From: a virus
Lineage: Duplodnaviria; Heunggongvirae; Uroviricota; Caudoviricetes
Reading direction: 5' to 3' (one strand)
Length of the DNA stretch: 64,000 nt
Virus record (IMG/VR): IMGVR_UViG_3300012347_000377
Span: 1-64,000 of that record
The notes below the pieces were generated by a model. The model ran no database searches and was not told the DNA's origin. It worked only from the letters and a program-made list of their open reading frames with translations. The first letter of the stretch is position 1. Each line of letters begins with the position of its first letter. Both the position numbers and the translations under genes were made by a program. Below are positions 10,651-33,472 of the stretch, in pieces.

Positions 10651-10670
10651 TAATTAAAACACAAAAAAAA

Positions 10671-12545: not shown

Positions 12546-12548
12546 AAT

Positions 12549-13053: not shown

Positions 13054-13079
13054 TAATATAAATTAATAAGATATAAAAG

Positions 13080-13526: not shown

Positions 13527-13532
13527 TAAGAA

Positions 13533-14672: not shown

Positions 14673-14686
14673 TAATTAAAACAATT

Positions 14687-15094: not shown

Positions 15095-15102
15095 AAATTA
15101 CG

Positions 15103-15261: not shown

Positions 15262-15539
15262 TGAATAATCAATATAAAATATATAGACAATCTTATTTGG
15301 ATGAATATGGTGTAGAGAGTTCAATATCATATTATATCAGAGAACGTAAAAACTTTTTAGGTATTTCATATTGGAAATCTATAAAACATGAGGTATGTGG
15401 ATATGGTGATTGCTATAATGTGAGAACCCAATTTAAATCAGTAGAAGAAGCCGAAACCTTTGTTAAGGAAAAACTTTGCACAAAGATTGGTAAGGATAAG
15501 TGGGTAGAGAAAGAAGTAAAACAATTAAGTTGTAATTAA
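15261..15539 (+). CDS. hypothetical protein (92 aa)
   Basis: ORF. Confidence 0.45.
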   Translation: MNNQYKIYRQSYLDEYGVESSISYYIRERKNFLGISYWKSIKHEVCGYGDCYNVRTQFKSVEEAETFVKEKLCTKIGKDKWVEKEVKQLSCN

Positions 15540-15540
15540 A

Positions 15541-16122: not shown

Positions 16123-16126
16123 TATT

Positions 16127-16897
16127 ATGCCGGAATTAGCAGAACTACGTCTTACCGCAGATTATATCAATCAAACTGCAAAGGGTAAAATTTTTCATAG
16201 TGTAAGAAAGAATCCAACTCACAAATGTCCTGAAATATCGGAAGAGTTGGATTTTCCTTTTACCATTAAAGCAGAAAGTAAAGGTAAAGAATTGATGCTT
16301 GAAATTACGCCACAACTAATGGATGGTGAAAAAAAATACTTAATGATGACAATGGGTATGAGTGGTCATTTCAAATGGTTAGTAGAAGGAACTACTCATA
16401 AACATGCACATTTAATATTTAATTCTGATGGAGGTTCTTTGGCTTTTGTAGATGTTAGAAGATTTGGTAAATGGAAATGGGGAAGTTGGGGTAATGATAG
16501 AGGACCAGACCCTACCACCGATTTTCAAAACTTTATTCGTAATATTAAAAATAACCTACATAAGAACGATTTTAATAAACCAATATGTGAAGTTCTGATG
16601 AATCAAAAATACTTCAATGGTATTGGTAATTATTTGAGAGCAGAAATATTATATAGAGTTAATGTAAATCCATTTATTCCAGCAAGAGAAGCATTAACAT
16701 CTCATTCTGAAATTTATGAATTATGTAGATGGGCACCATTACAAGCTTATAAATTAGGGGGTGGTGTAGTTGAATCATATAGACAAATGTTGAATAGTTG
16801 GGAAGAATTCATTCTATGTTATAATCGACCAAATATGAGTAAAGTGAAAGATAAAAATGGAAGAACATTTTGGTATGATAAAAAATGGGATATTTAA
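16127..16897 (+). CDS. nei: Fpg/Nei-family DNA glycosylase (endonuclease VIII-like)
   Basis: N-terminal MPELAEL (catalytic Pro2/Glu3); H2TH motif NGIGNYLRAEILYRV. Confidence 0.75.
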   Translation: MPELAELRLTADYINQTAKGKIFHSVRKNPTHKCPEISEELDFPFTIKAESKGKELMLEITPQLMDGEKKYLMMTMGMSGHFKWLVEGTTHKHAHLIFNSDGGSLAFVDVRRFGKWKWGSWGNDRGPDPTTDFQNFIRNIKNNLHKNDFNKPICEVLMNQKYFNGIGNYLRAEILYRVNVNPFIPAREALTSHSEIYELCRWAPLQAYKLGGGVVESYRQMLNSWEEFILCYNRPNMSKVKDKNGRTFWYDKKWDI

Positions 16898-16910
16898 TAA
16901 AAAAGGAATT

Positions 16911-17471
16911 ATGATAAAATTAAAAGATTTAATAACCGAAAAGAAAACTGGTTATGATTACGGATGTGTAATGTTATATTTTACACCAAACGAAGATGTA
17001 GTTAAATTTCAAAATCAAATATCACCATCTGATTTGTATATTGCAGAAGATAATGGTGGATATGGAATTGAAGATGAAGCACATTGCACCTTATTGTATG
17101 GATTACATGAAGAAGTTAAGTTAGAAACGATTTCACAAATATTGAATAGAATTCAATTTGGAGAATGTAAAATTCATAACCCATCTCTTTTTGAAAACGA
17201 AAAGTTTGATGTTCTTAAATTTGATGTAGGCTATCCATCCAAAGGTGGTGCGTTTTTACATAAAGCAAATACGGAATTGGTAAAACTACCAAACACTCAA
17301 ACATATCCAGATTACCACCCACATATGACAGTTGCATATTTAAAACCGGGAATGGGTAAAAAGTATGTTGATATGTTAAATGGTAAAGTAAATACGTTTA
17401 TACTTAATCCTACACACGCAGTGTATTCACAGCCGGATGGTAGTAAAACTGAAATCAAAATAAATAAGTAA
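16911..17471 (+). CDS. 2H phosphoesterase (LigT/CPDase-like)
   Basis: Two H-x-T-x motifs: HCTLL and HMTVA. Confidence 0.5.
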   Translation: MIKLKDLITEKKTGYDYGCVMLYFTPNEDVVKFQNQISPSDLYIAEDNGGYGIEDEAHCTLLYGLHEEVKLETISQILNRIQFGECKIHNPSLFENEKFDVLKFDVGYPSKGGAFLHKANTELVKLPNTQTYPDYHPHMTVAYLKPGMGKKYVDMLNGKVNTFILNPTHAVYSQPDGSKTEIKINK

Positions 17472-19029: not shown

Positions 19030-19404
19030 GGGGATGCCCGGTATTGACAGATATGAAGTGTTGATATAATTGCAAGCAGGATTAGATGGAAATCCTTAAT
19101 CACCTATCGAACAATAAACGCAGAAGAAAAATCTTCATTCACCTTTGCAGATGCTATGGCATTTGTAGGTGCTGATTTAGCTGTAGCAGCATAATCATCC
19201 TCGCACACATCGTGAGCTAAAAAAGAATGTGAACTCAGGTGGAAAAGTGATTGAACCCGAAATCGAATCACTCATTGTTTATCGGTTGCCGATGGTGAAG
19301 AACCAACCGAATATTTTGTTAGTTAAGAAAAACTAACTAAGCTTGTGAATGAGGTTTATTAAACCATATTTTGGACGAGGGTTCGACTCCCTCCATCTCC
19401 ACCA
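19030..19404 (+). ncRNA. ssrA: tmRNA (SsrA)-like RNA, phage-encoded
   Basis: 5' GGGGATG pairs with 3' CATCTCC-ACCA (G3:U70); 3' end GGACGAGGGTTCGACTCCCTC...CCACCA is tmRNA-like; internal frame aataaacGCAGAAGAA...GCTGTAGCAGCATAA ends in ...ADLAVAA stop. Confidence 0.6.
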
Positions 19405-19455: not shown

Positions 19456-19570
19456 TATTGTTATTAAAATAAAGGTTGAAGCCAATAGTAATAAAACCGA
19501 CTATGTGACCCCGTAAGGAAGAAAGCCGGATACCATTATTTTAATAATAAAAAAAATAAATGAAAAAAGA

Positions 19571-19786: not shown

Positions 19787-19857
19787 GCGAGGGGGAGGTA
19801 AGGTATTTCATTGGTCTCATAAGCCAACCTAAGTGGGTTCGATTCCCACCCTACGCA
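19787..19857 (+). tRNA. tRNA-like gene, anticodon CAT, degenerate D-arm
   Basis: Acceptor GCGAGGG/CCTACGC (1 mismatch), anticodon arm TTGGT-CTCATAA-GCCAA, T-arm GTGGG-TTCGATT-CCCAC. Confidence 0.3.
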
Positions 19858-20384: not shown

Positions 20385-20416
20385 TTTGGAATTGTAAAAT
20401 TAATTTCGTATCTTTG
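20385..20416 (+). promoter_or_regulatory. phage promoter driving ORF-free region
   Basis: tttggaattgtaaaattaatttcgtatctttg. Confidence 0.55.
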
Positions 20417-20424: not shown

Positions 20425-21550
20425 AACGTTCTTTAAATTATTGAAAACATTGCACATAGTATTCTCGTAATACATAGTGCATATCCGCCGCATATGGTGG
20501 TTAAATAAACTTGGAAACAAGGATAAAGTGAATACATTGGTTAATGTGTTTGCGGTTTCAAACCGAAAGGAATGGAACTCGAGTATGCAAGTGGAATATC
20601 ATTAGACCTGATTAGTGAGGGTAACTCCGTAGTGAAATGGTTTGATGACTGGGCTATAGTAGAAGTTCAGTTGAAGTGGGAACACTAATAAGAATAATCC
20701 ATAGAGTTAATGCAAGAAGTGAGAACTTAATCTCTTCTCATCATTGCGTGATTCAATATTAAAGGTGACTTAAAACCGAAAGGTATGATAAAGTACGAGT
20801 GGTGTCGTTATTATCCTTACCTACCTCTCACCAAAGAGTGGGTATTGAAGTAATCTTAAAATATGGCGTTAGAGATAACGCATCGAGTAGTATAGTATTC
20901 TGTTCTTCAAAATGGAACGGAGCTAGTGGTAATCCACTACTTGAATTCTTCTACAAACCAAAACTCAATTTGCTATTTGAATGCAAACTCAAAAACAAAT
21001 AAGAGAAAGAGGTTACCAGTTACAATCGAAAGGTGTGTACTTAGTAGGGAGATGTTCCCTGCCACAAACACTCTCAAGGTGAATGTGATTCTTTCAAAAA
21101 ACTTCTAGCATTGCGAGATGTTAATCGGGTCGGCAGATTCGAAGAGGCGGAGTAAAAAGAGAGTAGGTTGTGACTTAAAGATTGGTAAATCTATAATTAC
21201 CCACATTGAATTGGTACTTCTCAAAAGGAAGTGGAAATTAAGGCAACCCATAACCCTTATAAAGCTGGTTCACAATATGGAGTATTCTCATCCTTATACA
21301 AGATGTAATAGTGTAATGGTAGCACGTTCCAATGGTGACTTTGGAAAGCAAGGTTCGATTCCTTAAACATCTCTTCGTAGTGGTTTACGGCAGATAGGTT
21401 AGGTGTATCTCTCTAACAACTGAAAGTCCACTTAAATAAAAATGACAAATAGTATGAAGATATGGTTTTCAGTAGGGGATTTTCGCCTTAAACAATCTCA
21501 ACCAATACGAATTAGTGTTGATGGTAAACAATGGATGTAGCTAGTCCTTT
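20425..21550 (+). ncRNA. candidate large structured non-coding RNA (about 1.1 kb, ORF-free)
   Basis: Bounded by consensus promoter and terminator; no ORF >82 aa in any frame; visibly G+C-richer than coding DNA; recurring ccgaaagg/tcgaaagg GNRA-like hairpins (20562, 20778, 21037). Confidence 0.35.
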
Positions 21551-21586
21551 GGAAAGAACCACCCTACGAAATCTTTCCTTTTTTAT
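21551..21586 (+). terminator. rho-independent terminator
   Basis: GGAAAG-16nt-CTTTCC followed by TTTTTT. Confidence 0.5.
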
Positions 21587-21661
21587 AACAATGGTTGTAG
21601 GTAGGTTCGATTCCTCCGTTATATCTAAATTAATTAAACACAAACAAAAAAAACAATTATT

Positions 21662-22115: not shown

Positions 22116-22187
22116 GGGGATATAGCTCAATGGTAGAGCAACGGACTGTTAATCCGTAGGTTGTAGGTTCGAATCCTTCTATCCCCG
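22116..22187 (+). tRNA. tRNA-Asn (GTT)
   Basis: GGGGATA/TATCCCC acceptor, loop CTGTTAA, T-loop TTCGAAT. Confidence 0.85.
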
Positions 22188-22275
22188 CAATAAGAGTTCA
22201 TTGACATATTGGATATTAACTAATGGGCTTTAGTGGGAAGCCGCAAGAACGATAGATGTTGTTCATCCACTAAAT

Positions 22276-22347
22276 GCGAATATCGTATAATGGTTATTAC
22301 TCCTTCCTTCCAAGTAGGAGATGTAGGTTCGATTCCTACTATTCGCT
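22276..22347 (+). tRNA. tRNA-Gly (TCC)
   Basis: GCGAATA/TATTCGC acceptor, loop CTTCCAA, GTAGG-TTCGATT-CCTAC. Confidence 0.75.
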
Positions 22348-22451
22348 CAATAAACACATTGAAGGTTCGACCCTCTACCAAATATGATATATTCATAAAT
22401 GGATTCATGAGGGAGCTACCTATTGATAAGTGACCGCACAAGCGGTAAAAT

Positions 22452-22522
22452 TGCCTGATGGTGTAGCGGTAGCACAACTGTTTTTGGTGCAGTTAGGGTA
22501 GGTTCGAATCCTGCTCGGGTAA
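22452..22522 (+). tRNA. tRNA-Gln (TTG)
   Basis: TGCCTGA/TCGGGTA acceptor (2 G-U), anticodon arm ACTGT-TTTTGGT-GCAGT, T-loop TTCGAAT. Confidence 0.55.
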
Positions 22523-22528
22523 CAATTT

Positions 22529-22602
22529 AGAAGATTAGCTCAGTTGGTTAGAGCATTTGGTTTACATCCAAAGGGTCATAGGTTCGAATCCTATATCTTC
22601 TA
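22529..22602 (+). tRNA. tRNA-Val (TAC)
   Basis: AGAAGAT/ATCTTCT acceptor, GCTC-AGTTGGTTA-GAGC D-arm, loop TTTACAT. Confidence 0.85.
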
Positions 22603-22610
22603 CAATAATT

Positions 22611-22694
22611 GGGAGTGTTGAGCAACGGTTGCTTAGCGGACTGTAAATCCGTGGTCTTTCGGCATTGGGGGTTCGAATCCCTCCACTCCCACCA
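22611..22694 (+). tRNA. tRNA-Tyr (GTA), CCA encoded
   Basis: GGGAGTG/CACTCCC, loop CTGTAAA, long variable arm, ends ACCA. Confidence 0.85.
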
Positions 22695-22697
22695 ATC

Positions 22698-22770
22698 GGA
22701 GCTTTGGTATAGCTGGTGCGTACGCTAGTCTGAAGAACTAGAGGACAAGGTTCGATTCCTTGAGGCTCCA
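22698..22770 (+). tRNA. tRNA-Phe (GAA)
   Basis: GGAGCTT/AGGCTCC, loop CTGAAGA, CAAGG-TTCGATT-CCTTG. Confidence 0.8.
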
Positions 22771-22832
22771 CAATAAAGTGATATTTGAACAATAAATTGA
22801 TTATCTTTATTAGACAGAAATAAGTTTATTAT

Positions 22833-22906
22833 GACTCCGTAGCTCAGTTGGTTAGAGCACCTCACTTTTAATGAGGGAGTCAATGGTTCGAGTCCATTCG
22901 GGGTCA
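22833..22906 (+). tRNA. tRNA-Lys (TTT)
   Basis: GACTCCG/CGGGGTC, loop CTTTTAA, T-loop TTCGAGT. Confidence 0.85.
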
Positions 22907-22962
22907 CAATAGTAGTTTTGAGGTTGGCGAATTCTACTTTAAAAAAATAATCCATCCACCAT

Positions 22963-23035
22963 AGGGTAGTTGACTAATGGTTAAGTCACTTGCTTTGGGA
23001 GCAAGACGATGGAGGTTCGAGTCCTCTCTACCCTA
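22963..23035 (+). tRNA. tRNA-Pro (TGG)
   Basis: AGGGTAG/CTACCCT, arm CTTGC-TTTGGGA-GCAAG (G37). Confidence 0.8.
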
Positions 23036-23041
23036 CAACAC

Positions 23042-23115
23042 TGGTAATTAGCTCATTTGGTTAGAGCATCTCGCTGATACCGAGAAGGTGGCAGGTTCGA
23101 ATCCCGCATTACCAA
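23042..23115 (+). tRNA. tRNA-Ile (GAT)
   Basis: TGGTAAT/ATTACCA, loop CTGATAC. Confidence 0.8.
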
Positions 23116-23126
23116 CTATAAAATAC

Positions 23127-23197
23127 ACGGGTATGGTGCAATGGTAGCATACGGCTCTCCAAAAGCTTTGATGGAAGTTCGAATCTTTCTATCCGTG
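23127..23197 (+). tRNA. tRNA-Trp (CCA)
   Basis: ACGGGTA/TATCCGT, loop CTCCAAA, GGAAG-TTCGAAT-CTTTC; anticodon stem has one mismatch. Confidence 0.55.
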
Positions 23198-23258
23198 CTA
23201 AATGTAAAATTATGAAACAATTATTTGACAAACATTAGGTAACAAAACCTAATGTATA

Positions 23259-23462
23259 ATGAAAGAAGAAAGAGTAAAAAGAATGAGAATGGAATGGAAC
23301 TATTGTTTCATTTGTTCTAAAAGATGTGGTAGTTGGTATTATGATTGTGCACCTTCAAAGATTTGGGGTAGACATGGAAATGGTAAACCAATTTATTCAC
23401 ATAAGTTCAGAGAGTATAAAAGTTGGAAACACAACAGAAAGACACAATGGAAGATAATGTAA
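23259..23462 (+). CDS. small Cys/Trp-rich protein (67 aa)
   Basis: ORF between tRNA blocks. Confidence 0.35.
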   Translation: MKEERVKRMRMEWNYCFICSKRCGSWYYDCAPSKIWGRHGNGKPIYSHKFREYKSWKHNRKTQWKIM

Positions 23463-23689
23463 TAAATCGGTTAGTTCCGAGATTGAAAAAAATTGGTATT
23501 GAAGTGGAATTAGCTGGAAACTATCCTTGGATATATCTTGAAAAAGTAAATGGAAATAGGATAAAGAGAGAGGATTTCTTTAGAGGGAATCATGGATTCA
23601 CCATTGCTTTCTTACCAATCAGAAATGATCAAGTTATGGAATTGACTGATATTGGTAAAGTATTTGAAATGATACGAAAGTATAAATAA
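23423..23689 (+). CDS. hypothetical protein (88 aa; start may be internal ATG at 23447)
   Basis: ORF. Confidence 0.35.
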   Translation: METQQKDTMEDNVINRLVPRLKKIGIEVELAGNYPWIYLEKVNGNRIKREDFFRGNHGFTIAFLPIRNDQVMELTDIGKVFEMIRKYK

Positions 23690-23692
23690 AAT

Positions 23693-23764
23693 AGTTCCGT
23701 AGTTTAACGGATAGAACAATTGGCTACGAACCATTAAATGGGAGTTCGATTCTCTCCGGAACTA
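23693..23764 (+). tRNA. tRNA-Arg (ACG)
   Basis: AGTTCCG/CGGAACT, loop CTACGAA, GGGAG-TTCGATT-CTCTC. Confidence 0.65.
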
Positions 23765-23828
23765 CAAATGATATGGTACCTGAAACGTTAAATGGAGGGG
23801 GGTTCGCCTGAAATGCCATATCATTAAA

Positions 23829-23901
23829 TGTCAGGTTGACCGAGTTGGTTAGGTGGAGGTCTGCAAAACCTTTTACATTGGTTCGAATCCAATACTTGAC
23901 T
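23829..23901 (+). tRNA. tRNA-Cys (GCA)
   Basis: GTCAGGT/ACTTGAC, arm GAGGT-CTGCAAA-ACCTT, ATTGG-TTCGAAT-CCAAT. Confidence 0.65.
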
Positions 23902-23960
23902 CGATAAAGGATACTGGTCGTATCGCCTGACGAGGAGAGTGTGGTTCGATTCCACAAAAC

Positions 23961-24030
23961 TGCGTGACTTAGTGGAAAAGAACTTTCTCTCATAAGGAAG
24001 GTCAATTGAGTTCGAACCTCAAACACGCAA
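23961..24030 (+). tRNA. tRNA-like, anticodon CAT (Met/Ile2-type loop), weak D-arm
   Basis: TGCGTGA/ACACGCA (1 mismatch), TTTCT-CTCATAA-GGAAG, TTGAG-TTCGAAC-CTCAA. Confidence 0.3.
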
Positions 24031-24096
24031 CGATGAATAATATATTATACAAAAGCAGTATATTTAGGGGTAAATGAATAATATATTATACAACAT

Positions 24097-24182
24097 AGAG
24101 AGTTACCCAAGTCGGTGAAGGGGCCTGTTTGCTAAACAGGTAGGATGTTAAAGTCGCAAGGGTTCGAGCCCCTTACTCTCTA
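24097..24182 (+). tRNA. tRNA-Ser (GCT)
   Basis: AGAGAGT/ACTCTCT, CCTGT-TTGCTAA-ACAGG, long variable arm. Confidence 0.85.
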
Positions 24183-24199
24183 CGGAAAAATAATTAATT

Positions 24200-24274
24200 G
24201 CTCGTATGGCGGAATTGGAATACGCAACGGCCTTAGAACCCGTACAATTGAAAGTTCGAATCTTTCTATGAGCA
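24200..24274 (+). tRNA. tRNA with UAG anticodon (Leu-decoding) but short variable arm
   Basis: GCTCGTA/TATGAGC, loop CTTAGAA, GAAAG-TTCGAAT-CTTTC; class-I architecture is unusual for Leu. Confidence 0.45.
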
Positions 24275-24297
24275 CAAACACTTAAACAACGATAATT

Positions 24298-24756
24298 ATG
24301 GTTTACAGAAAACTGGGAGACAGAACCGAAGTTGATTTAGTAGAATACATTAAAACGTATTTAACTAATCACGATGATGTTGATATTCTAATTGGGTGTG
24401 ATTCACAAAATCACAGATTCCAAACAACCTATGCCATCGTAGTTGCGTTGTATCATAGGGGTAAAGGTGGTCATGTCTTATATAACAAATGGACAGTTCC
24501 AAGAGAAAGAGTAAGACAAACTCGTTTATTAAATGAAGTTTGGTATTCAGTTGAAACTGCTGAATTACTAAGAGAATCAGGAATACCAAAACCAAAATGG
24601 ATTGATGTGGATTTAAATCCAGATCCACGTTTCAAATCTAACGAAGTGTTTAGACAAGCAGTTGGTATGGTTGAAGGAATGGGTTATCAGGTTAGATATA
24701 AATCATTAGGTCCGATTGCAACATATTGTGCAGACCACTTAGTAAAAAATAATTAA
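24298..24756 (+). CDS. DUF458/YkuK-like RNase H-fold protein
   Basis: DILIGCDSQ...YAIVVALYHRGKGG resembles YkuK family core (viGTDSq). Confidence 0.4.
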   Translation: MVYRKLGDRTEVDLVEYIKTYLTNHDDVDILIGCDSQNHRFQTTYAIVVALYHRGKGGHVLYNKWTVPRERVRQTRLLNEVWYSVETAELLRESGIPKPKWIDVDLNPDPRFKSNEVFRQAVGMVEGMGYQVRYKSLGPIATYCADHLVKNN

Positions 24757-24763
24757 AAAAACA

Positions 24764-24795
24764 TTTGGATATATAAAATAATTTTCGTATCTTTG
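24764..24795 (+). promoter_or_regulatory. phage promoter
   Basis: tttggatatataaaataattttcgtatctttg. Confidence 0.55.
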
Positions 24796-24810
24796 TAATG
24801 TATTAAAAAA

Positions 24811-24929
24811 TAAAGAGGTAGTGAAGCTGTAATGATGAGCTTTGGGGTAAAGGTTGGAAAAAGGGTTAATAGTATGACTTAAAGCCTACACTCATCATCA
24901 GTAACCCTGAAAGACCCGAAACCTCTTTA
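24811..24929 (+). ncRNA. structured RNA element (nested perfect helices) in 5' leader of tRNA-Met
   Basis: Outer 9-bp helix TAAAGAGGT/ACCTCTTTA; inner CTG-ta-ATGATGAG/CTCATCAT-CAG helix. Confidence 0.35.
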
Positions 24930-24933
24930 ATTT

Positions 24934-25010
24934 GGACTTGTAGCTCAGTTGGTTAGAGCAACTGACTCATAATCAGTAGGTAATAGGTTCGATCCCTATC
25001 TGGTCCACCA
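24934..25010 (+). tRNA. tRNA-Met (CAT), CCA encoded
   Basis: GGACTTG/CTGGTCC (one U-U), GCTC-AGTTGGTTA-GAGC, ACTGA-CTCATAA-TCAGT, ends ACCA. Confidence 0.75.
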
Positions 25011-25021
25011 AATAAAAAAGT

Positions 25022-25264
25022 ATGATTCCAAAAAGTGAAATGTTAGAAGGTTGGTATAATGGATTTAGTAGAAACAACCATGTAGCATATTGGGATGGTG
25101 ATCAATTCCAATACATCAGATATTCATTCGGTTTCTATTTGGATACGATTGAACATTTTGAAGATGTTAAAGAAAGTGGGTTTGATGGATTTGTTCCAGT
25201 TGAAAGAATTGAACGAATTCCAAATGATACTCAATGGAAAATTAAAGACGAAATTGGGTATTAA
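25022..25264 (+). CDS. hypothetical protein (80 aa)
   Basis: ORF. Confidence 0.4.
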   Translation: MIPKSEMLEGWYNGFSRNNHVAYWDGDQFQYIRYSFGFYLDTIEHFEDVKESGFDGFVPVERIERIPNDTQWKIKDEIGY

Positions 25265-25281
25265 AAAAAAGTAAAAAAAGA

Positions 25282-25313
25282 TTAGGAAATGTAAAATATT
25301 TTTCGTATCTTTA
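25282..25313 (+). promoter_or_regulatory. phage promoter (attagg variant)
   Basis: attaggaaatgtaaaatatttttcgtatcttta. Confidence 0.45.
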
Positions 25314-25349
25314 TAATGTTCTTTGAAACGATGGTTAGTAAAGTAATAT

Positions 25350-25424
25350 GGTGGTTGTAGCTCAACTGGTTAGAGCATCCGATTGTGATTCGGAAGGTTA
25401 TGGGTTCGAAACCCATCATTCACC
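25350..25424 (+). tRNA. tRNA-His (GTG) with encoded G-1
   Basis: G-1 plus GTGGTTG/CATTCAC, C73, loop TTGTGAT. Confidence 0.7.
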
Positions 25425-25500
25425 CAAGGAGTTCCCAATCTCAAGTGCTGGTTAGTTGAAACACGCTGATCGAAGAGCCCATCAAAATTGGTGGAATAAT

Positions 25501-25627
25501 AGTCTTGTGGCGAAATGGTAAACGCAAATGTCACTCGGAGAAGAAGGAACTAAGCCAACATCTCCTTGCAAGTGATAGGGTATTCTAAAGAGTAAATCCC
25601 GTACAGGTTCGAATCCTGTCATGACTA
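25501..25627 (+). tRNA. tRNA-like gene with roughly 55-nt insertion (paralogue of 726-838)
   Basis: AGTCTTG/CATGACT acceptor, D-arm GGCGAAATGGTAAACGC, ACAGG-TTCGAAT-CCTGT; internal hairpins CACTCGGAGA...TCTCCTTGCAAGTG and AGGG...CCC. Confidence 0.4.
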
Positions 25628-25819
25628 CAATGTATCAAATGTGCAGTGAAAATAAATGTAGGCATACATATATGAGGTGGGTTCGACTCCCGTATAATAA
25701 TTCCAACTTAGGGGGGAAGCCAAGTAACTGAAAACACATTATAGCCGATTTGGGTTGTGCACCTCGTCCGAGAAACCCTAATAGTTCCTAATAGGTCGGT
25801 ATGGAACTGATACATAATT

Positions 25820-25892
25820 GCTTCCATAGCTCAACTGGTAGAGCCCTCGATTTGTAATCGAGAGGTTGTTGGTTCGATTCCGACTGGAAGCT
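25820..25892 (+). tRNA. tRNA-Thr (TGT)
   Basis: GCTTCCA/TGGAAGC, CTCGA-TTTGTAA-TCGAG. Confidence 0.8.
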
Positions 25893-26268
25893 CCGATTGA
25901 TGTTTCGTTTGATGGTATGTTTTTAAGTTGCCAAAGTGCCGAAAGGATTACTTGATAAGTAAAAAGGATAAACCATCGTAATTGGCTCTATAATTGTTGA
26001 GGTCGCACCAAAGACAATGAGTGGGTGAATGATGATTAAATGTAGGTGACACTCCTTAATACTAGGATTGGAGAGAAGAGTTGGTGCATTTAGTAAGTAG
26101 TTCATAAGATGGGTTCGATTCCCATTAGAGTCTCAATGATTACTGAAATTGAATGATACGAGCCCCGAAAGTTCGAAAAGAGTCAGGCAGTAATCATAGA
26201 GTGGATTCATCAGTTGATGAAAACCAATCGGGGGTTGTCCCACTAGAATGGAAACATCCCCTGCATTT

Positions 26269-26342
26269 GGGACGTTAGTAGAGATGGTTACAATGTCGCC
26301 CTGTCACGGCGAAGGTCACGGGTTCGAGTCCCGTACGTCCCG
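26269..26342 (+). tRNA. tRNA-Asp (GTC)
   Basis: GGGACGT/ACGTCCC, TCGCC-CTGTCAC-GGCGA, ACGGG-TTCGAGT-CCCGT. Confidence 0.8.
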
Positions 26343-26465
26343 CAAATCCCGTTGATTACCTAATCTCAACATAAGGAATCACGTATAGGGAGTTGAGCAG
26401 ATTGAGAAGCTGTTTTGGCGGTAACGCTGAGAATATCTTGACACTTTGGAAAGACAAAGATTTTT

Positions 26466-26537
26466 GGCCCTATAATTAAACGGATATAATGCTTCCCTTC
26501 TAAGGAAGACTTGGGAGTTCGATTCTCTCTGGGGCTA
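26466..26537 (+). tRNA. tRNA-Arg (TCT)
   Basis: GGCCCTA/TGGGGCT, CTTCC-CTTCTAA-GGAAG. Confidence 0.7.
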
Positions 26538-26584
26538 CATAAAAATTAAAACGTAAACCATAAAATAAACCAAAACAAAAAATT

Positions 26585-27013
26585 ATGCAAAATCTTTTTA
26601 TTAGTATTATTATGTTGTTGTCACCAATTGAATTGACATCGACAAATGTAGAAATTGAAGAAAGTAGTTTAGAAGAAATTGGAGTAGTAACGGTCACAAC
26701 ATATACATCAACAATTGGAGAATGTGATAGTTCACCCAACGTAACTGCGAGTGGATTTAAAATCAGTAAGAGGAATCCAAAAAAACACAGAATCATTGCC
26801 GTAAGTAGAGATTTAAAACGTAAATTGAAATTCGGTCAGAAAGTAAAAGTAACTGGTGCTGGAAAGTATAATGGTGAATATGTAGTAAGGGATGTAATGA
26901 ATAAAAGATATAGAAGACATATCGATATTCTAATCAATCCTAAAGATAAACAAACTAAATTTTCAAAAGTGAAAATTTATAAAATAAAAGATAAAAAAGA
27001 TTTGGAATTGTAA
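26585..27013 (+). CDS. 3D-domain (MltA/YocH-like) protein, secreted
   Basis: Signal peptide; TASGFKI...IIAVSRDL...KVKVTGAG...RHIDIL resembles 3D domain. Confidence 0.4.
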   Translation: MQNLFISIIMLLSPIELTSTNVEIEESSLEEIGVVTVTTYTSTIGECDSSPNVTASGFKISKRNPKKHRIIAVSRDLKRKLKFGQKVKVTGAGKYNGEYVVRDVMNKRYRRHIDILINPKDKQTKFSKVKIYKIKDKKDLEL

Positions 27014-27032
27014 AATAAATTTCGTATCTTTG
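27001..27032 (+). promoter_or_regulatory. phage promoter overlapping end of upstream gene
   Basis: tttggaattgtaaaataaatttcgtatctttg. Confidence 0.5.
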
Positions 27033-27094
27033 TATATATCATACACAATTGATTGATTTTCTAACATATCTTATATTTATATTAAAGAGTTGAT

Positions 27095-27535
27095 ATGAAA
27101 GTAAGTGATGAAAAGATAATTGAAATATGTAATAACTCAATATCAATGGCTAGAGCAGCAGTTGATTTAGGAATACATTTTAATACTCTAAAAAGTAGAG
27201 CAATTAAATTGGGGTGTTATAAAATAAACCCATCTGGTAAGGGGATAAAAAAACCTAAAAGAGATGGATTTGATAAGATAGCTCTTTCTAAAATACTGAA
27301 TGGTGATGAACCACAATATCAAACTAATAAATTACGAATTAGATTGATTAAAGAAGGTATTAAAGAAGAAAAATGTGAAGTATGTGGTATAACCGAATGG
27401 AATGGTAAATCAGTTTCATTTGAATTGGATCATATAGATGGTAATAGGACAAATCACAAATTAATTAATTTAAGAATAATTTGTCCAAATTGTCATTCAC
27501 AAACTGAAACATATAGAGCAAGAAATATTAAGTAA
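27095..27535 (+). CDS. HNH homing endonuclease
   Basis: ELDHIDGNRTNH...ICPNCH (HNH with zinc ligands). Confidence 0.7.
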   Translation: MKVSDEKIIEICNNSISMARAAVDLGIHFNTLKSRAIKLGCYKINPSGKGIKKPKRDGFDKIALSKILNGDEPQYQTNKLRIRLIKEGIKEEKCEVCGITEWNGKSVSFELDHIDGNRTNHKLINLRIICPNCHSQTETYRARNIK

Positions 27536-27536
27536 T

Positions 27537-27622
27537 GCCTCGGTGGAGAAATTGGTAGACTCGCAGCACTTAAAATGCTGTCCGCCGTAAGGAGGGTGCC
27601 GGTTCGACTCCGGCCCGAGGTA
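27537..27622 (+). tRNA. tRNA-Leu (TAA)
   Basis: GCCTCGG/CCGAGGT, CAGCA-CTTAAAA-TGCTG, long variable arm, GCCGG-TTCGACT-CCGGC. Confidence 0.8.
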
Positions 27623-27737
27623 CAATGTAATGATTCGAAAGAATAGCGGAACAGATGCTAAGAATGAAATGGAAACGTTTGAAACTCGTATAAAGGAGTG
27701 AATTCGAAACAAACCGCACAGACATTACATTATTTTT

Positions 27738-27811
27738 GGGGATGTAGCTCAGTTGGCTAGAGCATCTGCCTTGCACGCAGAGGGTCGCAGGTTCGATTCC
27801 TGTCATCTCCA
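27738..27811 (+). tRNA. tRNA-Ala (TGC)
   Basis: GGGGATG/CATCTCC with G3:U70, TCTGC-CTTGCAC-GCAGA. Confidence 0.85.
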
Positions 27812-27819
27812 CTTTATTT

Positions 27820-27891
27820 GCTCCGTTCGACAAGCGGTTAAGTCACGTCCCTTTCACGGATGAGTCACGGGTTCGATTCCCGTACGGAGTA
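27820..27891 (+). tRNA. tRNA-Glu (TTC)
   Basis: GCTCCGT/ACGGAGT, CGTCC-CTTTCAC-GGATG. Confidence 0.75.
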
Positions 27892-27921
27892 CAACTATCG
27901 TTCTTTGATAAAACTAAAATT

Positions 27922-28284
27922 ATGGAAATACTATACATTGGCTTAGGTATATTATCATCGGCTTTTATATTCCTTTTGGGGTATTCGGTGAATGGTGTAT
28001 TTAACACACAGAAAAGAATAGTTGAATTGCAAGAGCAAATTAAAACTATTGATGTCAATTTAGGACAGATTGAAGAACACATTCATATCAGAATTAATGT
28101 AGTTGAAAAAGAACTACAAACAAACATTGATAGGGTGGATAGGGAATCGACAGCATTGTTAGATTCTCGATTAGACAAATTGGAAGCACGAATTCGAAAG
28201 GATATTCCAATTACGAATGATGAATTATTAAAAGAAATGAACGAAATTAAAGATGCGTTCAGACAAATGAGATTAACTTTATAA
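27922..28284 (+). CDS. membrane-anchored coiled-coil protein (120 aa)
   Basis: N-terminal TM helix then heptad-rich segment. Confidence 0.45.
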   Translation: MEILYIGLGILSSAFIFLLGYSVNGVFNTQKRIVELQEQIKTIDVNLGQIEEHIHIRINVVEKELQTNIDRVDRESTALLDSRLDKLEARIRKDIPITNDELLKEMNEIKDAFRQMRLTL

Positions 28285-28310
28285 ACTAATATAAAGAACG
28301 ATAGTTAAAC

Positions 28311-28398
28311 GGAGAGTTGTCAGAGTGGTCGATTGAGGTAGTCTTGAAAACTACTGCTTGTAACAGGGCCGGGGGTTCGAATCCCTCACTCTCCTCCA
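28311..28398 (+). tRNA. tRNA-Ser (TGA), CCA encoded
   Basis: GGAGAGT/ACTCTCC, GTAGT-CTTGAAA-ACTAC, long variable arm, ends TCCA. Confidence 0.8.
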
Positions 28399-28423
28399 AT
28401 TTTTAAATTTAAAACTAAATAGA

Positions 28424-28852
28424 ATGAATGTAAAACAAGCGTTAAAACTAAAAAATAAATTAGTTGGCGAAATCAAAGAGCAATACGAAATTGCAAAAAA
28501 GTATAATTCAATCGAAGAAGGTAATCCTCGTAGATACCAGATTGAAGGAGCATTACAACGTTCCGCAACTTTAACCAAAGAGTTGGTTGAATTGAAAACC
28601 AAATTACACAAAGCAAATATGCCGGTGTATCATTTAATCTTCGAATTAGCTGAAGCTAAGGGTAGAATTAAAGAATTGAAAAAAATCCCAACGGATGAAG
28701 GTAAACAAGAATCTCGTTATGGTAGTGTCATTTCAGTTAAAGAAGTAGAATTATCAGTAGTTGAAATCGCTGGTAAAATTAGATCAATGGAAGAAACTAT
28801 TGAAAGAATTCAGAATGAGTTGGATATTCATAATTCGAATACCCAAATCTAA
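28424..28852 (+). CDS. coiled-coil protein (142 aa)
   Basis: ORF. Confidence 0.45.
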   Translation: MNVKQALKLKNKLVGEIKEQYEIAKKYNSIEEGNPRRYQIEGALQRSATLTKELVELKTKLHKANMPVYHLIFELAEAKGRIKELKKIPTDEGKQESRYGSVISVKEVELSVVEIAGKIRSMEETIERIQNELDIHNSNTQI

Positions 28853-29073
28853 AAATATTGAGTAGAAGGGGGAGATGATATTTTTCTAATACATTCTTAC
28901 AATTCAACTATCTGGCACATAGCGGATGAACGATTAAGATATAGAACGATACACAACCTTCAACCCTTTTAGAGTCAACAATCGACCACTTTCAATGAAC
29001 TCAAACCTCGCTGAAACCTGGATGTCTTTTAAATTTTGATTCGAACCCTGAAACTCATTTATAAAAAACACAT

Positions 29074-30150
29074 ATGGATATTAATCAAATATTTGGAAAT
29101 TCTAAACAATTTAGTAATATTACACAGATAAACGAATTATTAAATGATGATGAAATCTATATCATAGATGGGTATATGATTAAACAAATGTCTTATCGTA
29201 TTGATGATGAAACTCCATATAAAGTTTCCATTGATCGTAAAGCCATCATTAGAAATAATCTAAAAAAAATAACAGATACATATAAAAAAATTATGTATTT
29301 TGAATCCGAAGAACTAGCATATGATTATGAGTCGGTTTCATATTTTATCGATTTATGTATGGAATTCGATGTTAAATTATTCATTTATTCATTTAATTGT
29401 AATATTAACGATTTCTTAAAAGTAAAATATCCAAATAAATATCCTACTCAAATATTAGCAAATACTGCAACTACTCTAATACAAAATTGTAATGGGCTTC
29501 CATCTAATTTGACTAGAACTAAAAATAAAAAATTACTTTTTTTAAATTATAATAGAAAAATAAATAGAGATTTAATAATAACATATCTTAAAAATTGGAA
29601 TGAATTACATAATCCAGAAAACATAATTTCATATCATAACAATTATACATTTAATTCAAATGTATATAAAACTATGTATAAAGATTATGCTGAAAAAAAT
29701 GGTATAGATTTTAATTATTTAGATTCATTGGTTTTAAAACCTGAAGAAGTTGATGTTCATAATCAAAGTGATGCACAGCAAAAAGCACAATTACTGCATT
29801 ATGAATCTAAATTTAATATAATTTGTGAACCATTTTTTGGATTAAGTGATAATCCAAATGAATATGAATATTACAACCATACACTAAGTAGAAAGGTAGT
29901 ATATCCTATATTATATAACAATGTTATATTTGTTCACGAACATAGTCCAATCTTATCTAAGACATTGAAAAATTTAGGATTTGAATTATTTTTTGATAAT
30001 ATTGAGGATTTTAAAAATAATATGACAGATAAGTTTTACTATTCAGACGAAACTCAAAGAAAACTCATACATAATAATACGTTATTGGAAAAACTTGGCT
30101 CAAGTTATAAAAAAACTTTAACGGATGAAATAAATAATTTTTTTAATTAA
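29074..30150 (+). CDS. hypothetical protein (358 aa), very A+T-rich (N/Y/I/K-rich)
   Basis: Long ORF inside tRNA region; composition differs from neighbours. Confidence 0.45.
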   Translation: MDINQIFGNSKQFSNITQINELLNDDEIYIIDGYMIKQMSYRIDDETPYKVSIDRKAIIRNNLKKITDTYKKIMYFESEELAYDYESVSYFIDLCMEFDVKLFIYSFNCNINDFLKVKYPNKYPTQILANTATTLIQNCNGLPSNLTRTKNKKLLFLNYNRKINRDLIITYLKNWNELHNPENIISYHNNYTFNSNVYKTMYKDYAEKNGIDFNYLDSLVLKPEEVDVHNQSDAQQKAQLLHYESKFNIICEPFFGLSDNPNEYEYYNHTLSRKVVYPILYNNVIFVHEHSPILSKTLKNLGFELFFDNIEDFKNNMTDKFYYSDETQRKLIHNNTLLEKLGSSYKKTLTDEINNFFN

Positions 30151-30186
30151 AAATTAAAAATAGTATATATATAAGTATATACAAAC

Positions 30187-30271
30187 GGAGGCGTGGCAGA
30201 GTGGTCGAACGCGGCGGTCTTGAAAACCGTTATACTGCAAGGTATCGTAGGTTCGAATCCTACCGCCTCCG
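30187..30271 (+). tRNA. tRNA-Ser (TGA), second copy
   Basis: GGAGGCG/CGCCTCC, GCGGT-CTTGAAA-ACCGT, long variable arm. Confidence 0.75.
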
Positions 30272-30515
30272 CAACCTTATTCTCATGTTGGGCTCAGGTG
30301 AGTGAAAAGCGTACGAGGTTACTGAGTCCTTTATTGTAGTGTGACGAAATTGGCAGACGTGCCCTCCTGTCTCGGGGGTGTGGAATAAAGAAATAGATTG
30401 ACAATATGGGGTAGACCACCAGCATGCATGCGAACGATGTTGTCAATTGAATCTCCATTTGAGTGGTTCGAATCCCTTCACTACAGCATTATTAATTTAA
30501 TATCCAGTATCGATA

Positions 30516-31642: not shown

Positions 31643-33472
31643 ATGGAAGATATTTCAAAAGTAGAAAAACGAATTCTTGAACAAATAGAAAGTAATGTTC
31701 CGTTGGTTGATGTGAAAATTGATTTAAGTAATTATCTGAAACATGCGTTTGTTAATGACCACATCGATAAATCTAAACAAGAAATAACTCACACTTTTCA
31801 ATATGAAACATTAGGAGAACAAGATTGTTTATTAATGCAAGCTCCTAATATCAATGAATCTGGTTATTATGCCGGTATTGTTGCGTTAAAATCCTACATA
31901 GATAAATTTCATTCAGATTTGAATGTTGCAATTATAGACCCCGTAATTGATTATTTTTATCTATATCCACCAAATAAAGAATCTGAATTTTTTAATATGT
32001 TCAACACCTATGCAATGCAAGGTCAATATGAACGTTTATATGAATTCACCGAAATGAATGATATGGTTGAAGGATTTGTCTTCAAATATATCGAAAAAAC
32101 CAATCCTGCATTTTTTGGATTAAGTATTATCGATGGTAATATCGATGCATCGATTGCAATTGCAAGAAGAGTTAAAGAACAATATCCACATATTAAAATT
32201 TTGATGGGTGGTAATGGAATTGAGGTTTTAGACTTCGGTGTTCTACCGAATCCTACTTACACAACTGAAAAATATGATTTCATTGATATTTTTGTAAGGG
32301 GCGATGGTGAAATTACTTTTGTGGAAATTTTGAAATCGGACATGTCTGAAGAATATCTAAAAACTATAAATGGAATTATTTGGAGAAATTCGGAAGGTAA
32401 GTTAGTTCATAATCATACTCGTGAAAATGTTGATATGGATATTTTACCATTTCCAGATTATGCTTCATTAGAGGAAAATTATTATTACAAATCTACCTAC
32501 CAATACAATGTTCCACTTGTTATGAGTAGAGGATGTCCTTACAGATGCACATTTTGTTCAGTACCTGAATTTATTCCGGTCTTCCGCTATCGTAAATTAG
32601 AATCGGTAATTGAAGAAATGGAACATTGGATTAACAAAGGACGTTATCACTTTTTCTGCCACGATTCAATTATTAATGGTGATCCAAGATGGTTGAAAAA
32701 ATTCTGCGAGGCAGTTATTGAAAAAGATTGGTATGCAAAATATGGTGTATCATTTGGTGGTAATATGAGATTACAAACTCCAATGCGTGATTTAGAAACA
32801 ATGCGATTATATCGTAAAGCCGGATTATTAAAAATGATTACAGGGTTTGAATCTGCATCAGAGCCAGTTTTAAAACATATGAAAAAATATCCTAATATGG
32901 ATGGGGTTAGGGAAATTTTTGAAAATGTTCGAATTATCAATAGTGAAAATGAACCTCCAATGATGTTTGCAATGCAACTTATTATTGGATACTTAAATGA
33001 GAGTGAGGAAGATTTTCAGAAAACAATTGATTTTGTGAAAGAGTATAAAGATTGTATGTCTGAAATCTTAACTTGTTCTGGGTTTCTTATCCACGAAACT
33101 TTACGAAAGAAATGGGTAGAAGATGGTAATTTTTTACAATATCATAATACGGTTAATTTTAATACCAATTATAATACTGCAGAAGAACGTTTGGATAGAC
33201 TTAACAGAATCGATGAAGTATTTAAAGAAATAGGAATACCACATTCGGTCTATAATAGAGGTTTATATTATGATTTAAAAGATAAAACTGATACGGAAAT
33301 CGGTGATATTTACAATATCGATGATTGTAAAAATCCGGACAAGATATTAGAAATAAATCAGTATTATAAAAATACTGAAGAAGAAATAATGGTTGAAACT
33401 GAATCGGAGATAATTGAAGAATATATTCAAATGTCAAATGAAGAACCTCCAAAAATTACTAAATTAATTTAA
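31643..33472 (+). CDS. B12-binding-domain radical SAM enzyme
   Basis: CPYRCTFCSV (CxxxCxxC) preceded by Rossmann-like ILMGGNGIE region typical of cobalamin-binding rSAM proteins. Confidence 0.75.
   Translation: MEDISKVEKRILEQIESNVPLVDVKIDLSNYLKHAFVNDHIDKSKQEITHTFQYETLGEQDCLLMQAPNINESGYYAGIVALKSYIDKFHSDLNVAIIDPVIDYFYLYPPNKESEFFNMFNTYAMQGQYERLYEFTEMNDMVEGFVFKYIEKTNPAFFGLSIIDGNIDASIAIARRVKEQYPHIKILMGGNGIEVLDFGVLPNPTYTTEKYDFIDIFVRGDGEITFVEILKSDMSEEYLKTINGIIWRNSEGKLVHNHTRENVDMDILPFPDYASLEENYYYKSTYQYNVPLVMSRGCPYRCTFCSVPEFIPVFRYRKLESVIEEMEHWINKGRYHFFCHDSIINGDPRWLKKFCEAVIEKDWYAKYGVSFGGNMRLQTPMRDLETMRLYRKAGLLKMITGFESASEPVLKHMKKYPNMDGVREIFENVRIINSENEPPMMFAMQLIIGYLNESEEDFQKTIDFVKEYKDCMSEILTCSGFLIHETLRKKWVEDGNFLQYHNTVNFNTNYNTAEERLDRLNRIDEVFKEIGIPHSVYNRGLYYDLKDKTDTEIGDIYNIDDCKNPDKILEINQYYKNTEEEIMVETESEIIEEYIQMSNEEPPKITKLI

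Follow-up and report, generated by a model that had tools for sequence, protein, structure and literature searches.

An array of 24 canonical transfer RNA (tRNA) genes for all 20 amino acids was found in a 64-kb window of IMGVR_UViG_3300012347_000377, a Caudoviricetes record of the IMG/VR database; the window is the whole stretch of DNA that was analysed and is part of a larger genome. The array occupies positions 22116-30272 and is the tRNA part of a wider RNA island of about 19.0-30.5 kb, in which a transfer-messenger RNA (tmRNA), a GOLLD RNA, the tRNAs and tRNA-like RNAs are encoded. With a probability of roughly 0.6, the array would give the phage its own tRNA pool against the loss of host tRNAs. 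What was computed here comprises the genes with their canonical features, the share of codons they can decode, their conservation and order in related phages, and the promoter-like repeats between them.

Using ARAGORN, 24 tRNA genes were called, all of them on the plus strand; a low-threshold run with 68 calls consisted mostly of noise and was not used. All 24 genes pass the Rfam tRNA model (RF00005) with 52.8-79.8 bits against a gathering score of 29 (E <= 3e-9). The cloverleaf is formed with 6-7 of 7 acceptor-stem pairs, a 5-bp T-stem and a 7-nt anticodon loop, each anticodon arm (24/24) has Y32, U33, R37 and a stem of 4-5 bp, and the T-loop motif GTTCRANNC was counted 52 times where 11.7 occurrences are expected. 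The genes carry 23 anticodons and cover 20 of 20 amino acids, Ser-TGA being the sole duplicate. A sequence-only reading of this DNA had claimed a near-complete repertoire on the plus strand within less than 9 kb; strand and extent match the ARAGORN coordinates, and ARAGORN and Rfam agree on 24 genes where 23 had been listed, one Leu having been missed.

The array opens with a block of ten tRNA genes, namely tRNA-Asn (GTT) at 22116-22187 (Rfam score of 79.8 bits), tRNA-Gly (TCC) at 22276-22347 (63.2 bits), tRNA-Gln (TTG) at 22452-22522 (52.9 bits), tRNA-Val (TAC) at 22529-22602 (73.8 bits), tRNA-Tyr (GTA) with a long variable arm at 22611-22694 (53.2 bits), tRNA-Phe (GAA) at 22698-22770 (60.3 bits), tRNA-Lys (TTT) at 22833-22906 (71.9 bits), tRNA-Pro (TGG) at 22963-23035 (61.8 bits), tRNA-Ile (GAT) at 23042-23115 (64.1 bits) and tRNA-Trp (CCA) at 23127-23197 (57.2 bits). 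After small open reading frames (ORFs), tRNA-Arg (ACG) at 23693-23764 (61.3 bits) and tRNA-Cys (GCA) at 23830-23901 (57.8 bits) are followed by an atypical tRNA(CAU), tRNA-Ser (GCT) at 24097-24182 (57.2 bits), tRNA-Leu (TAG) at 24200-24274 (53.8 bits) and an ORF for an RNaseH_like protein. Next come a promoter-like site, an elongator-type tRNA with the anticodon CAT (Met or Ile2) at 24934-25010 (69.2 bits), an ORF, a further promoter-like site, tRNA-His (GTG) at 25350-25424 (63.6 bits), tRNA-like RNAs, tRNA-Thr (TGT) at 25820-25892 (68.8 bits), another tRNA-like RNA, tRNA-Asp (GTC) at 26269-26342 (60.1 bits) and tRNA-Arg (TCT) at 26466-26537 (58 bits). The last part comprises an ORF, a promoter-like site, an HNH gene, tRNA-Leu (TAA) at 27537-27622 (53.7 bits), tRNA-Ala (TGC) with G3:U70 at 27738-27811 (72 bits), tRNA-Glu (TTC) at 27820-27891 (57.5 bits), an ORF, the first tRNA-Ser (TGA) at 28311-28398 (52.8 bits), two ORFs, the second tRNA-Ser (TGA) at 30187-30271 (57.1 bits) and a tRNA-like RNA of about 150 nt. 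In the tightest runs, neighbouring tRNAs are separated by 3-10 nt. The genomic G-1 claimed earlier for tRNA-His is present as the G at 25350, which lies opposite C73 at 25424. The variable region of tRNA-Leu (TAG) has about 6 nt and thus a class-I architecture; bacterial tRNA-Leu usually has a long variable arm, and the tRNA-Leu(UAG) versions of some relatives are 82-83 nt long.

Related loci were retrieved from IMG/VR with the protein of the RNaseH_like ORF as query (24298-24756, plus strand; PF04308, DUF458-type, Pfam 2.4e-20; phrog_11311). In total 49 loci with 33-95% protein identity were obtained, all of them on viral contigs of up to 434 kb; the counts from this and the other IMG/VR scans are lower bounds on abundance. 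Well-covered loci mostly have 18-26 tRNAs, and the closer relatives nearly keep the order Asn-Gly-Gln-Val-Tyr-Phe-Lys-Pro-Ile-Trp-Arg-Cys-...-Ser-Leu-[RNaseH_like]-...-Thr-Asp-Arg-Leu-Ala. The retention of both content and order across the loci points to long purifying selection on the whole set. Regarding the source genome, the window has a G+C content of 28-39%, all long ORFs lie on one strand, and genes of phage type for PhoH, thymidylate synthase, a helicase, an endonuclease and an RNA ligase are encoded. No relative at the DNA level was found among 50,697 deposited phage genomes, for which megablast gave short tRNA matches only. Because of the 49 related loci on contigs of up to 434 kb and the lack of a similar deposited phage genome, the window is assigned to a large, uncultured phage. 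Such tRNA sets had been described in the sequence-only reading as typical of large virulent phages; the phage genes and the 49 viral loci bear out the large phage, whereas they do not show a virulent lifestyle.

The decoding capacity of the set was calculated for 13,406 codons from 54 window ORFs. Under strict pairing (Watson-Crick, G:U/U:G and I34), the 23 anticodons read 45 sense codons, which account for 83% of codon usage; with U34 reading all four bases of a family box, 59 of 61 codons and 97.4% of usage are covered. Even under this expanded wobble, AUA (25.9 per 1000 codons) and CGG (0.5 per 1000) have no reader. The set consists of one tRNA per codon box or half-box and is therefore a minimal set and not a choice of few isoacceptors; apart from the second Ser-TGA, selective enrichment is absent.

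Decoding of AUA would need a lysidine-modified CAU tRNA, and three tRNAs with a CAU anticodon are present in the window, the first two of them structurally atypical: one with an odd D-arm at 19787-19857 (plus strand; ARAGORN; Rfam 33.8 bits; 96-100% identical in the related loci L001-L003 and L042), one without a D-stem at 23961-24031 (plus strand; Rfam only 21.4 bits; 79-100% conserved in 14 loci) and the elongator-type gene at 24934-25010. In the D-armless RNA the anticodon loop CUCAUAA is invariant, and 13 of the 18 pairs that make up its acceptor, anticodon and T arms have both partners exchanged, which is covariation in favour of these arms. The presence of atypical tRNAs besides the canonical ones, as noted earlier, was confirmed; the non-decoding tRNA-like RNAs between the tRNAs and the tmRNA and GOLLD RNA upstream, all treated below, had not been part of that claim. 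An assignment of the three CAU tRNAs as initiator, Met and Ile2 was tried; the initiator signature (C1xA72 with three G:C anticodon-stem pairs, GGG/CCC) occurs in none of them and rules out the first identity, and between Met and Ile2 the sequence does not decide. An initiator-type tRNA follows the tmRNA in the relatives L001, L003, L007, L008, L010 and L014. Some relatives have a tRNA with the anticodon TTA, which would read the UAA stop codon, or a tRNA-Ile(TAT) (L023 2799-2871; L045 18198-18272; L017-L019, L023, L024, L026-L027, L034-L037); the window has neither.

At the 3' ends, two encoded CCA sequences had been noted in the sequence-only reading. Encoded CCA ends do exist, in three and not two of the 24 tRNAs, namely in tRNA-Tyr (22692-22694), in the CAT tRNA starting at 24934 (25008-25010) and in the tRNA-Ser (TGA) starting at 28311 (28396-28398); the tmRNA upstream also encodes CCA. 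Since only 3 of 24 tRNAs encode it, a CCA-adding enzyme is required, and none was found among the window ORFs scanned against protein-family profiles. Base 74 is C in 24/24 tRNAs of the window at a background of 12.8% C. The same holds for nearly all tRNAs of close relatives (255 of 259 distinct ones), of the other related loci (417 of 429) and of unrelated IMG/VR loci that bear one of the frame RNAs described below (502 of 519), and thus for 1,198 of the 1,231 tRNA genes examined (about 97-100% per set). The commonest trinucleotide after the discriminator base is CAA, full CCA is rare, and N73-C74 is also found in most tRNA-like RNAs of the window. This regularity suggests a common 3' maturation route in which CCA would be completed by a host enzyme.

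The array also contains promoter-like sites, as had been proposed: a 31-nt repeat, TTTGGAAtTGTAAAATaATTTCGTATCTTTG, is clustered in the island, where the copy at 24764-24795 on the plus strand is one of about ten in 18.7-27.0 kb (other starts: 18697, 19424, ~19571, ~19951, 20282, 20385, ~25282 and 27001). Copies outside the island start at 35101, 42801, 61678 and near 63948. The pattern TTTG-N17-23-TAnnTTTG has 24 matches against 5.8 expected and the 12-mer core TTTCGTATCTTT has 17 against 1.2 expected, and the repeats are positioned at the heads of tRNA blocks. The repeat fits a sigma-A promoter of Bacteroidota with its -33 and -7 boxes, the -33 box of this promoter being TTTG. The -7 box TAnnTTTG of these promoters has been described (PMC9723704). 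The repeat is far more conserved than a generic promoter requires, which suggests a phage-specific promoter class. Judged by the promoter type, the host is probably a member of Bacteroidota; three of eight metagenome-bin contigs with a frame-type RNA are labelled Bacteroidota.

For the transcription, processing and charging of the tRNAs and for their benefit to the phage, we infer the following course. Transcription from several copies of a single phage promoter would yield polycistronic precursors, from which the tRNAs would be released by host RNase P, 3' trimming and the CCA-adding enzyme before being charged by host synthetases. The resulting pool would keep phage translation going when host tRNAs are degraded, depleted or cleaved by defences, and a rescue of infection from tRNA-cleaving defences by phage tRNAs is known (PMC10264068, PMC11464382, PMC11555353). 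Genes of RNA-repair type upstream of the island would serve the same end; profile matches were obtained for an RNA ligase (13533-14672) and HAD_SAK_2 (15541-16122), and a weak match for a 2H-phosphoesterase/Acb1-like protein (16857-17471). Together with genes of NAD salvage type, for which a PRPP-synthetase-like protein (7843-8700) and NAMPT (9172-10650) were matched by Pfam or profile and a cytidylyltransferase-like protein (13080-13526) by Pfam, the latter possibly an NMN adenylyltransferase, they form a cluster at 7843-17471 that looks like a counter-defence neighbourhood. The complete minimal set under long selection, the phage promoters and the RNA-repair genes 5-8 kb upstream argue for a tRNA pool of the phage's own, and the one-per-box composition together with the nearby RNA-repair genes favours replacement or protection of the pool over the patching of rare codons.

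Several points weigh against an own tRNA pool. Under strict wobble rules, codons with a final U or C in eight family boxes, among them the heavily used GGU (32 per 1000), GUU (26 per 1000) and ACU (23 per 1000), need expanded wobble of U34 or host tRNAs, and AUA with its 25.9 per 1000 is readable only if a host enzyme adds lysidine to a CAU tRNA. The window lacks a tRNA of initiator type, and several relatives have one. Lysidine synthase, the CCA-adding enzyme, the synthetases and, for the ACG anticodon, TadA would further have to come from the host. Due to the U34 wobble, the dependence on host enzymes and the lack of an initiator tRNA in the window, the set is not fully autonomous. The genes of RNA-repair type, at a distance of 5-8 kb, may have other purposes, and no tRNA-targeting defence is known for the host. 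A mismatch in codon usage may also exist.

Such a mismatch is central to the classical explanation of phage tRNAs (reviewed in PMC10264068), by which they would supplement isoacceptors that the host has in short supply and the AT-rich phage genes (about 20% G+C at third codon positions) need, and would thereby speed the translation of late genes. The phage prefers codons ending in A or U, and all U34 and G34 anticodons match them, as illustrated by relative synonymous codon usage values of 3.66 for UUA, 3.51 for AGA, 2.48 for GCA and 2.36 for CCA, and the sole duplicated tRNA, Ser-TGA, reads the most-used Ser codon. However, the set is unselective and includes one tRNA even for barely used boxes (CUN Leu, CGN Arg), and in a flavobacterial host of low G+C content, a plausible one in view of the promoters, little mismatch would be expected. 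Codon-usage compensation is considered unlikely as the explanation of the array; it and the countering of defences aimed at tRNAs were the two functions suggested in the sequence-only reading.

The RNAs upstream of the array bear on another explanation. The upstream end of the island is formed by the tmRNA at 19030-19404 (plus strand; ARAGORN; Rfam RF00023, 102.2 bits), which has a tRNA-like domain with encoded CCA and an internal ORF for a 24-aa tag, AEEKSSFTFADAMAFVGADLAVAA, ending in a hydrophobic ...AA tail. The tag is unusually long; a long tag is kept in L003, L005, L007, L008, L030, L031, L033 and L042, and short tags occur in L001 and L006 (GVNNYALAA, GEYNYAIAA). Two promoter-headed short RNAs, the tRNA(CAU) with the odd D-arm and a 70-aa ORF separate the tmRNA from the GOLLD RNA. 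The conserved 3' domain of GOLLD is located at 20883-21294 on the plus strand (RF02032, 260.5 bits against a gathering score of 150; full model 1-416), and its transcript probably starts near 20420 behind the promoter-like site at 20385-20416. GOLLD adjoins a tRNA-like element with an 8-nt anticodon loop and without U33 at 21301-21373 (plus strand; 'tRNA-???' in ARAGORN; Rfam 30.3 bits), after which two small ORFs and a terminator-like hairpin precede tRNA-Asn. Another member of the GOLLD family has been resolved by cryo-electron microscopy (cryo-EM) as a homo-oligomeric nanocage, a 14-mer (PMC12286853).

If such a nanocage held and released linked or neighbouring tRNAs, the island would be a system for tRNA delivery or sequestration. 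This explanation draws on the position of GOLLD directly upstream of the tRNAs and next to a tRNA-like element, on the tmRNA-GOLLD-tRNA order, which is kept in seven close relatives with GOLLD scores of 262-302 bits, and on L005 and L008, where GOLLD adjoins a real tRNA-Gly. The cryo-EM study likewise reported GOLLD near tRNA islands, with tRNAs possible in the linker, and proposed encapsulation (PMC12286853). On the other hand, the scan for GOLLD covered close relatives only, and the main tRNA blocks lie up to 6 kb 3' of GOLLD with promoter-like sites of their own. A functional link between GOLLD and the tRNAs is suggested by synteny and by the speculation of the cryo-EM authors (PMC12286853), and a GOLLD-based delivery system as the purpose of the island is judged very unlikely.

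An HNH gene in the array, also claimed earlier, was recovered at 27095-27535 on the plus strand as a free-standing homing endonuclease, which is marginal in Pfam (HNH, 2e-4, 21.9 bits against a cutoff of 21.4) and clear in PHROGs (phrog_10822, 1.6e-34). Its stop codon lies 1 nt 5' of tRNA-Leu (TAA), and its homologues in relatives are sporadic and located at different sites, which fits a mobile homing endonuclease. That the array is largely a passenger of little use to the phage, a mobile and recombination-prone cassette which homing endonucleases have spread, would be in line with this gene, with spacers that are mosaic between close relatives and with the horizontal movement of GOLLD- and HNH-bearing tRNA arrays into mycobacteria (PMC6582537), but it is very improbable given that tRNA content and order are kept where the marker protein is down to 33% identity, that canonical loops and stems are retained in 24/24 genes and that even atypical members (23961-24031, 30335-30487) show covariation; signs of purifying selection on single tRNAs were also seen. 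A same-site cassette swap between the window and L042 was also considered and rejected; the alignment shows a mosaic insertion and not an in-place exchange.

Several spacers between the tRNAs are 87-100% conserved in relatives with about 73% marker-protein identity. Modules closed by terminal stems of 9-15 bp (z of -2.1 to -4.0) are found at 23766-23829, 26135-26197, 27624-27737, 22349-22451 and 19458-19550, that is, in inter-tRNA spacers and one upstream short RNA, and they may be processing sites or small RNAs. Some conserved spacers fold unremarkably, e.g. 25703-25819 with z = +0.24. Between the D-armless tRNA(CAU) and tRNA-Ser (GCT), at 24037-24094, there are two direct copies of a sequence of about 20 nt, ATGAATAATATATTATACAA. 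The inflation of ORF calls by the array, which the sequence-only reading had pointed out, is real; many six-frame ORFs overlap tRNAs, e.g. an ORF of 100 aa at 23724-24026 on the minus strand. On the 3' side of the island, a B12-binding radical-SAM enzyme (31643-33472) and a flavoenzyme of the tryptophan-halogenase family (47112-48353) are encoded, both unusual auxiliary genes for a phage.

Besides the decoding tRNAs, tRNA-like RNAs of two families were found. The first is a structured RNA of about 150 nt at 30335-30487 on the plus strand, 3' of tRNA-Ser (TGA), which was identified by blastn and has homologues after tRNA-Ser(TGA) in about 12 loci with 74-95% identity. The consensus fold of their alignment, A1, has 35 pairs; 98.4% of its cells are paired, compared with 41-53% in slid controls, and both partners are changed in 13 pairs, compared with 0-2 pairs in these controls. 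None of 500 shuffles reached the observed value on four of five measures. The fold is closed by a helix resembling an acceptor stem and further contains a hairpin similar to an anticodon arm, a long arm that covaries and has conserved internal motifs, and a T-arm; the conserved blocks are GGCAGAC, a CUGUCUC loop (in 9 of 11 sequences) and AUAUGGGGUAGACCACCA. The RNA has no match in Rfam. A further candidate of 151 nt was found by its fold at 25984-26134 on the plus strand, with a 7-bp acceptor stem, a 5-bp T-arm and N73-C74; it is about 89% conserved in L001, L002, L042 and L052, a number of homologues too small for covariation. From conservation and a simple fold, further tRNA-like candidates are located at 279-405 and 21535-21625 and candidates with a T-arm only at 23903-23960 and 25629-25702.

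The second family, termed frame RNAs, combines a tRNA-Leu-like frame with a variable centre. The window has two copies, one at 727-840 (plus strand; Rfam tRNA model, 37.3 bits) with the acceptor AGUCAGG...CCUGACUAC, which lies outside the island and has a homologue within the island of L003, and one at 25501-25628 (plus strand; 38.2 bits) with the variant acceptor AGUCUUG/CAUGACU and a centre of 77 nt. The frame consists of the acceptor AGUCAGG/CCUGACU, the D-arm GGCGGAAU(U)GGUAGACGC, the T-arm ACAGGUUCGAAUCCUGU, A73 and C74. The D-arm is of class II, GGCGGAAUUGGUAGACGC, and this half of the frame was matched to tRNA-Leu genes annotated in Erwinia and Klebsiella phages. A first IMG/VR census with an exact-flank pattern, which is biased to invariant frames, gave at least 120 stretches and at least 129 distinct sequences; single contigs had as many as three. 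A second scan was anchored on the D- and T-arms only, which corrects the bias for the acceptor stem only, and yielded at least 115 distinct elements, 79 of them with the AGUCAGG acceptor. Most of the other acceptors differ and are still fully or nearly fully paired, which constitutes covariation, and A73 is found in 101 of 115 members.

The centres have 25-130 nt and are hypervariable, falling into 91 unrelated classes; those of the two window copies are unrelated as well. No shared motif or anticodon was found in them, since no k-mer was enriched over shuffles. On average they are more structured than shuffles (mean z of -0.89, p = 2e-12). At the anticodon position, a stem with a 7-nt loop is formed in only 25 of 121 members and U33 is present in only 3, and ARAGORN made no call in 80 of 114 members. 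Among loci with a canonical tRNA, the frame RNA lies on the same strand in 76 of 76 at a median distance of 274 nt. When the ORFs within 3 kb of 148 copies were clustered, no family occurred in more than 10 contexts and hence no fixed protein partner was found. An RNaseH_like ORF was seen just 3' of a frame RNA in 9 other contexts.

Three known identities were considered for these elements and rejected. Compared with tRNA-Leu, the frame RNAs have the D-arm and A73, but they have neither an anticodon arm with a Leu anticodon nor a long variable arm; because of the anticodon arm they were not filed as tRNA-Leu. Regarding intron-containing tRNAs, the intron mode of ARAGORN returned inconsistent anticodons and sites for the long tRNA-like elements, i.e. 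Ser(cga) for 727-840, Ala(tgc) for 25501-25628 and absurd 'introns' on the kb scale; no Rfam intron family was matched, and the centres share no sequence. A host tRNA or an attachment-site remnant is ruled out by only 8 matches in 185,579 bacterial and archaeal species (one genome each), all of them on metagenome-bin contigs. The frame is also absent from deposited (cultured) phage genomes. For the centres as possible antisense guides, a search confined to 2 Mb of phage sequence gave two borderline matches of 15-16 nt, the other listed ones being on the elements themselves.

No description of the frame family was found in the literature, and a catalogue of viral candidate RNAs mentions tRNA-like structures in general terms only (PMC10690425). 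Like an engineered tRNA scaffold for RNA expression (PMC3753655), tmRNA and the tRNA mimics of bacterial Y RNA (PMC4201824), the frame RNAs have an intact acceptor and T (or acceptor, T and D) module, which in those analogues confers stability and processing of tRNA type, and other RNA in place of the anticodon region; they stand apart by their Leu-type D-arm, near-invariant acceptor and unrelated centres, contain no ORF, unlike tmRNA, and had no Ro-type partner among the findings, and membership in any of these classes is not claimed. The frame RNAs may, as a tentative proposal to which we give somewhat less than even odds, represent an undescribed class of non-decoding tRNA-like RNAs in the island and in many environmental phages; the separate 150-nt RNA would be a second new family. 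Through the frame, the RNA would be matured by RNase P and the 3' pathway, receive CCA and perhaps be leucylated, which is conceivable because leucyl-tRNA synthetase does not read the anticodon. The centre could serve as cargo, making the element a tRNA-scaffolded small RNA; alternatively, the whole RNA could be a decoy or sponge for tRNA-binding host factors.

The tRNA cluster of phage T4 comprises 8 tRNAs and the stable 'species 1 and 2' RNAs (rnaC, rnaD) of 120-140 nt, which are released by the tRNA-processing machinery. Compared with these by description only, the tRNA-like RNAs of the island belong to large families that span phages from metagenomes. In huge phages, as many as 67 tRNAs are found together with a tmRNA (Al-Shayeb et al. 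2020, PMC7162821), and Xanthomonas phage XacN1 has 56 tRNAs for all 20 amino acids (PMC5852040). The arrays of huge phages, XacN1 and KVP40 resemble the present one in tens of clustered tRNAs on the same strand for all or nearly all amino acids, a tmRNA and genes for translation or RNA repair, whereas a strict one-per-box minimal set and Bacteroidota-type promoters distinguish the array described here. KVP40 has a PF04308 homologue (167708-168238) about 5 kb from its tRNA cluster, beside an 'RNA-binding protein'; its five tRNAs that were checked all encode full CCA, whereas the tRNAs of the window have C74 and mostly lack CCA. Mycobacterium arrays, in the accounts given by PMC6582537 and, for Morgado et al. 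2020, by PMC12286853, are similar in being large and in containing GOLLD with an adjacent pseudo-tRNA and HNH; they reside in Actinobacteria chromosomes and plasmids, whereas here a phage genome with Bacteroidota-type promoters and a tmRNA is involved. The anti-defence tRNAs of T5 and other phages (PMC10264068, PMC11464382, PMC11555353) share with the present proposal the replacement of host tRNAs. These cases involve one or few tRNAs with loop changes and a known defence (PARIS, retron effectors, anticodon nucleases), whereas the set of the window is complete and has no cognate defence or host tRNA known for comparison.

Large tRNA arrays with a tmRNA, GOLLD near tRNA islands and arrays combining GOLLD and HNH are thus known already. 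Possibly new are the frame family and the 150-nt RNA, the rule of an encoded C74, and two unusual tRNAs, the tRNA-Leu(UAG) of class-I type and the tRNA(CAU) without a D-arm. The array is a further example, from an uncultured lineage with Bacteroidota-type promoters, of big phages that carry their own tRNA sets. For annotation, its recognition allows about 8 kb of spurious ORFs to be masked and gives hints on the host. The locus unites a minimal decoding set with a long-tag tmRNA, GOLLD and genes of RNA-repair type and so offers a compact natural test bed, which could help to test the replacement of the host pool by phage tRNAs and the role of GOLLD near tRNAs. The by-products of the analysis, i.e. 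the C74 rule and the two non-decoding RNA families, one of them widespread in phage metagenomes and nearly missing from bacterial genomes, may matter more than the array itself; they hint that RNAs with the shape of a tRNA have roles outside translation when phages infect their hosts.

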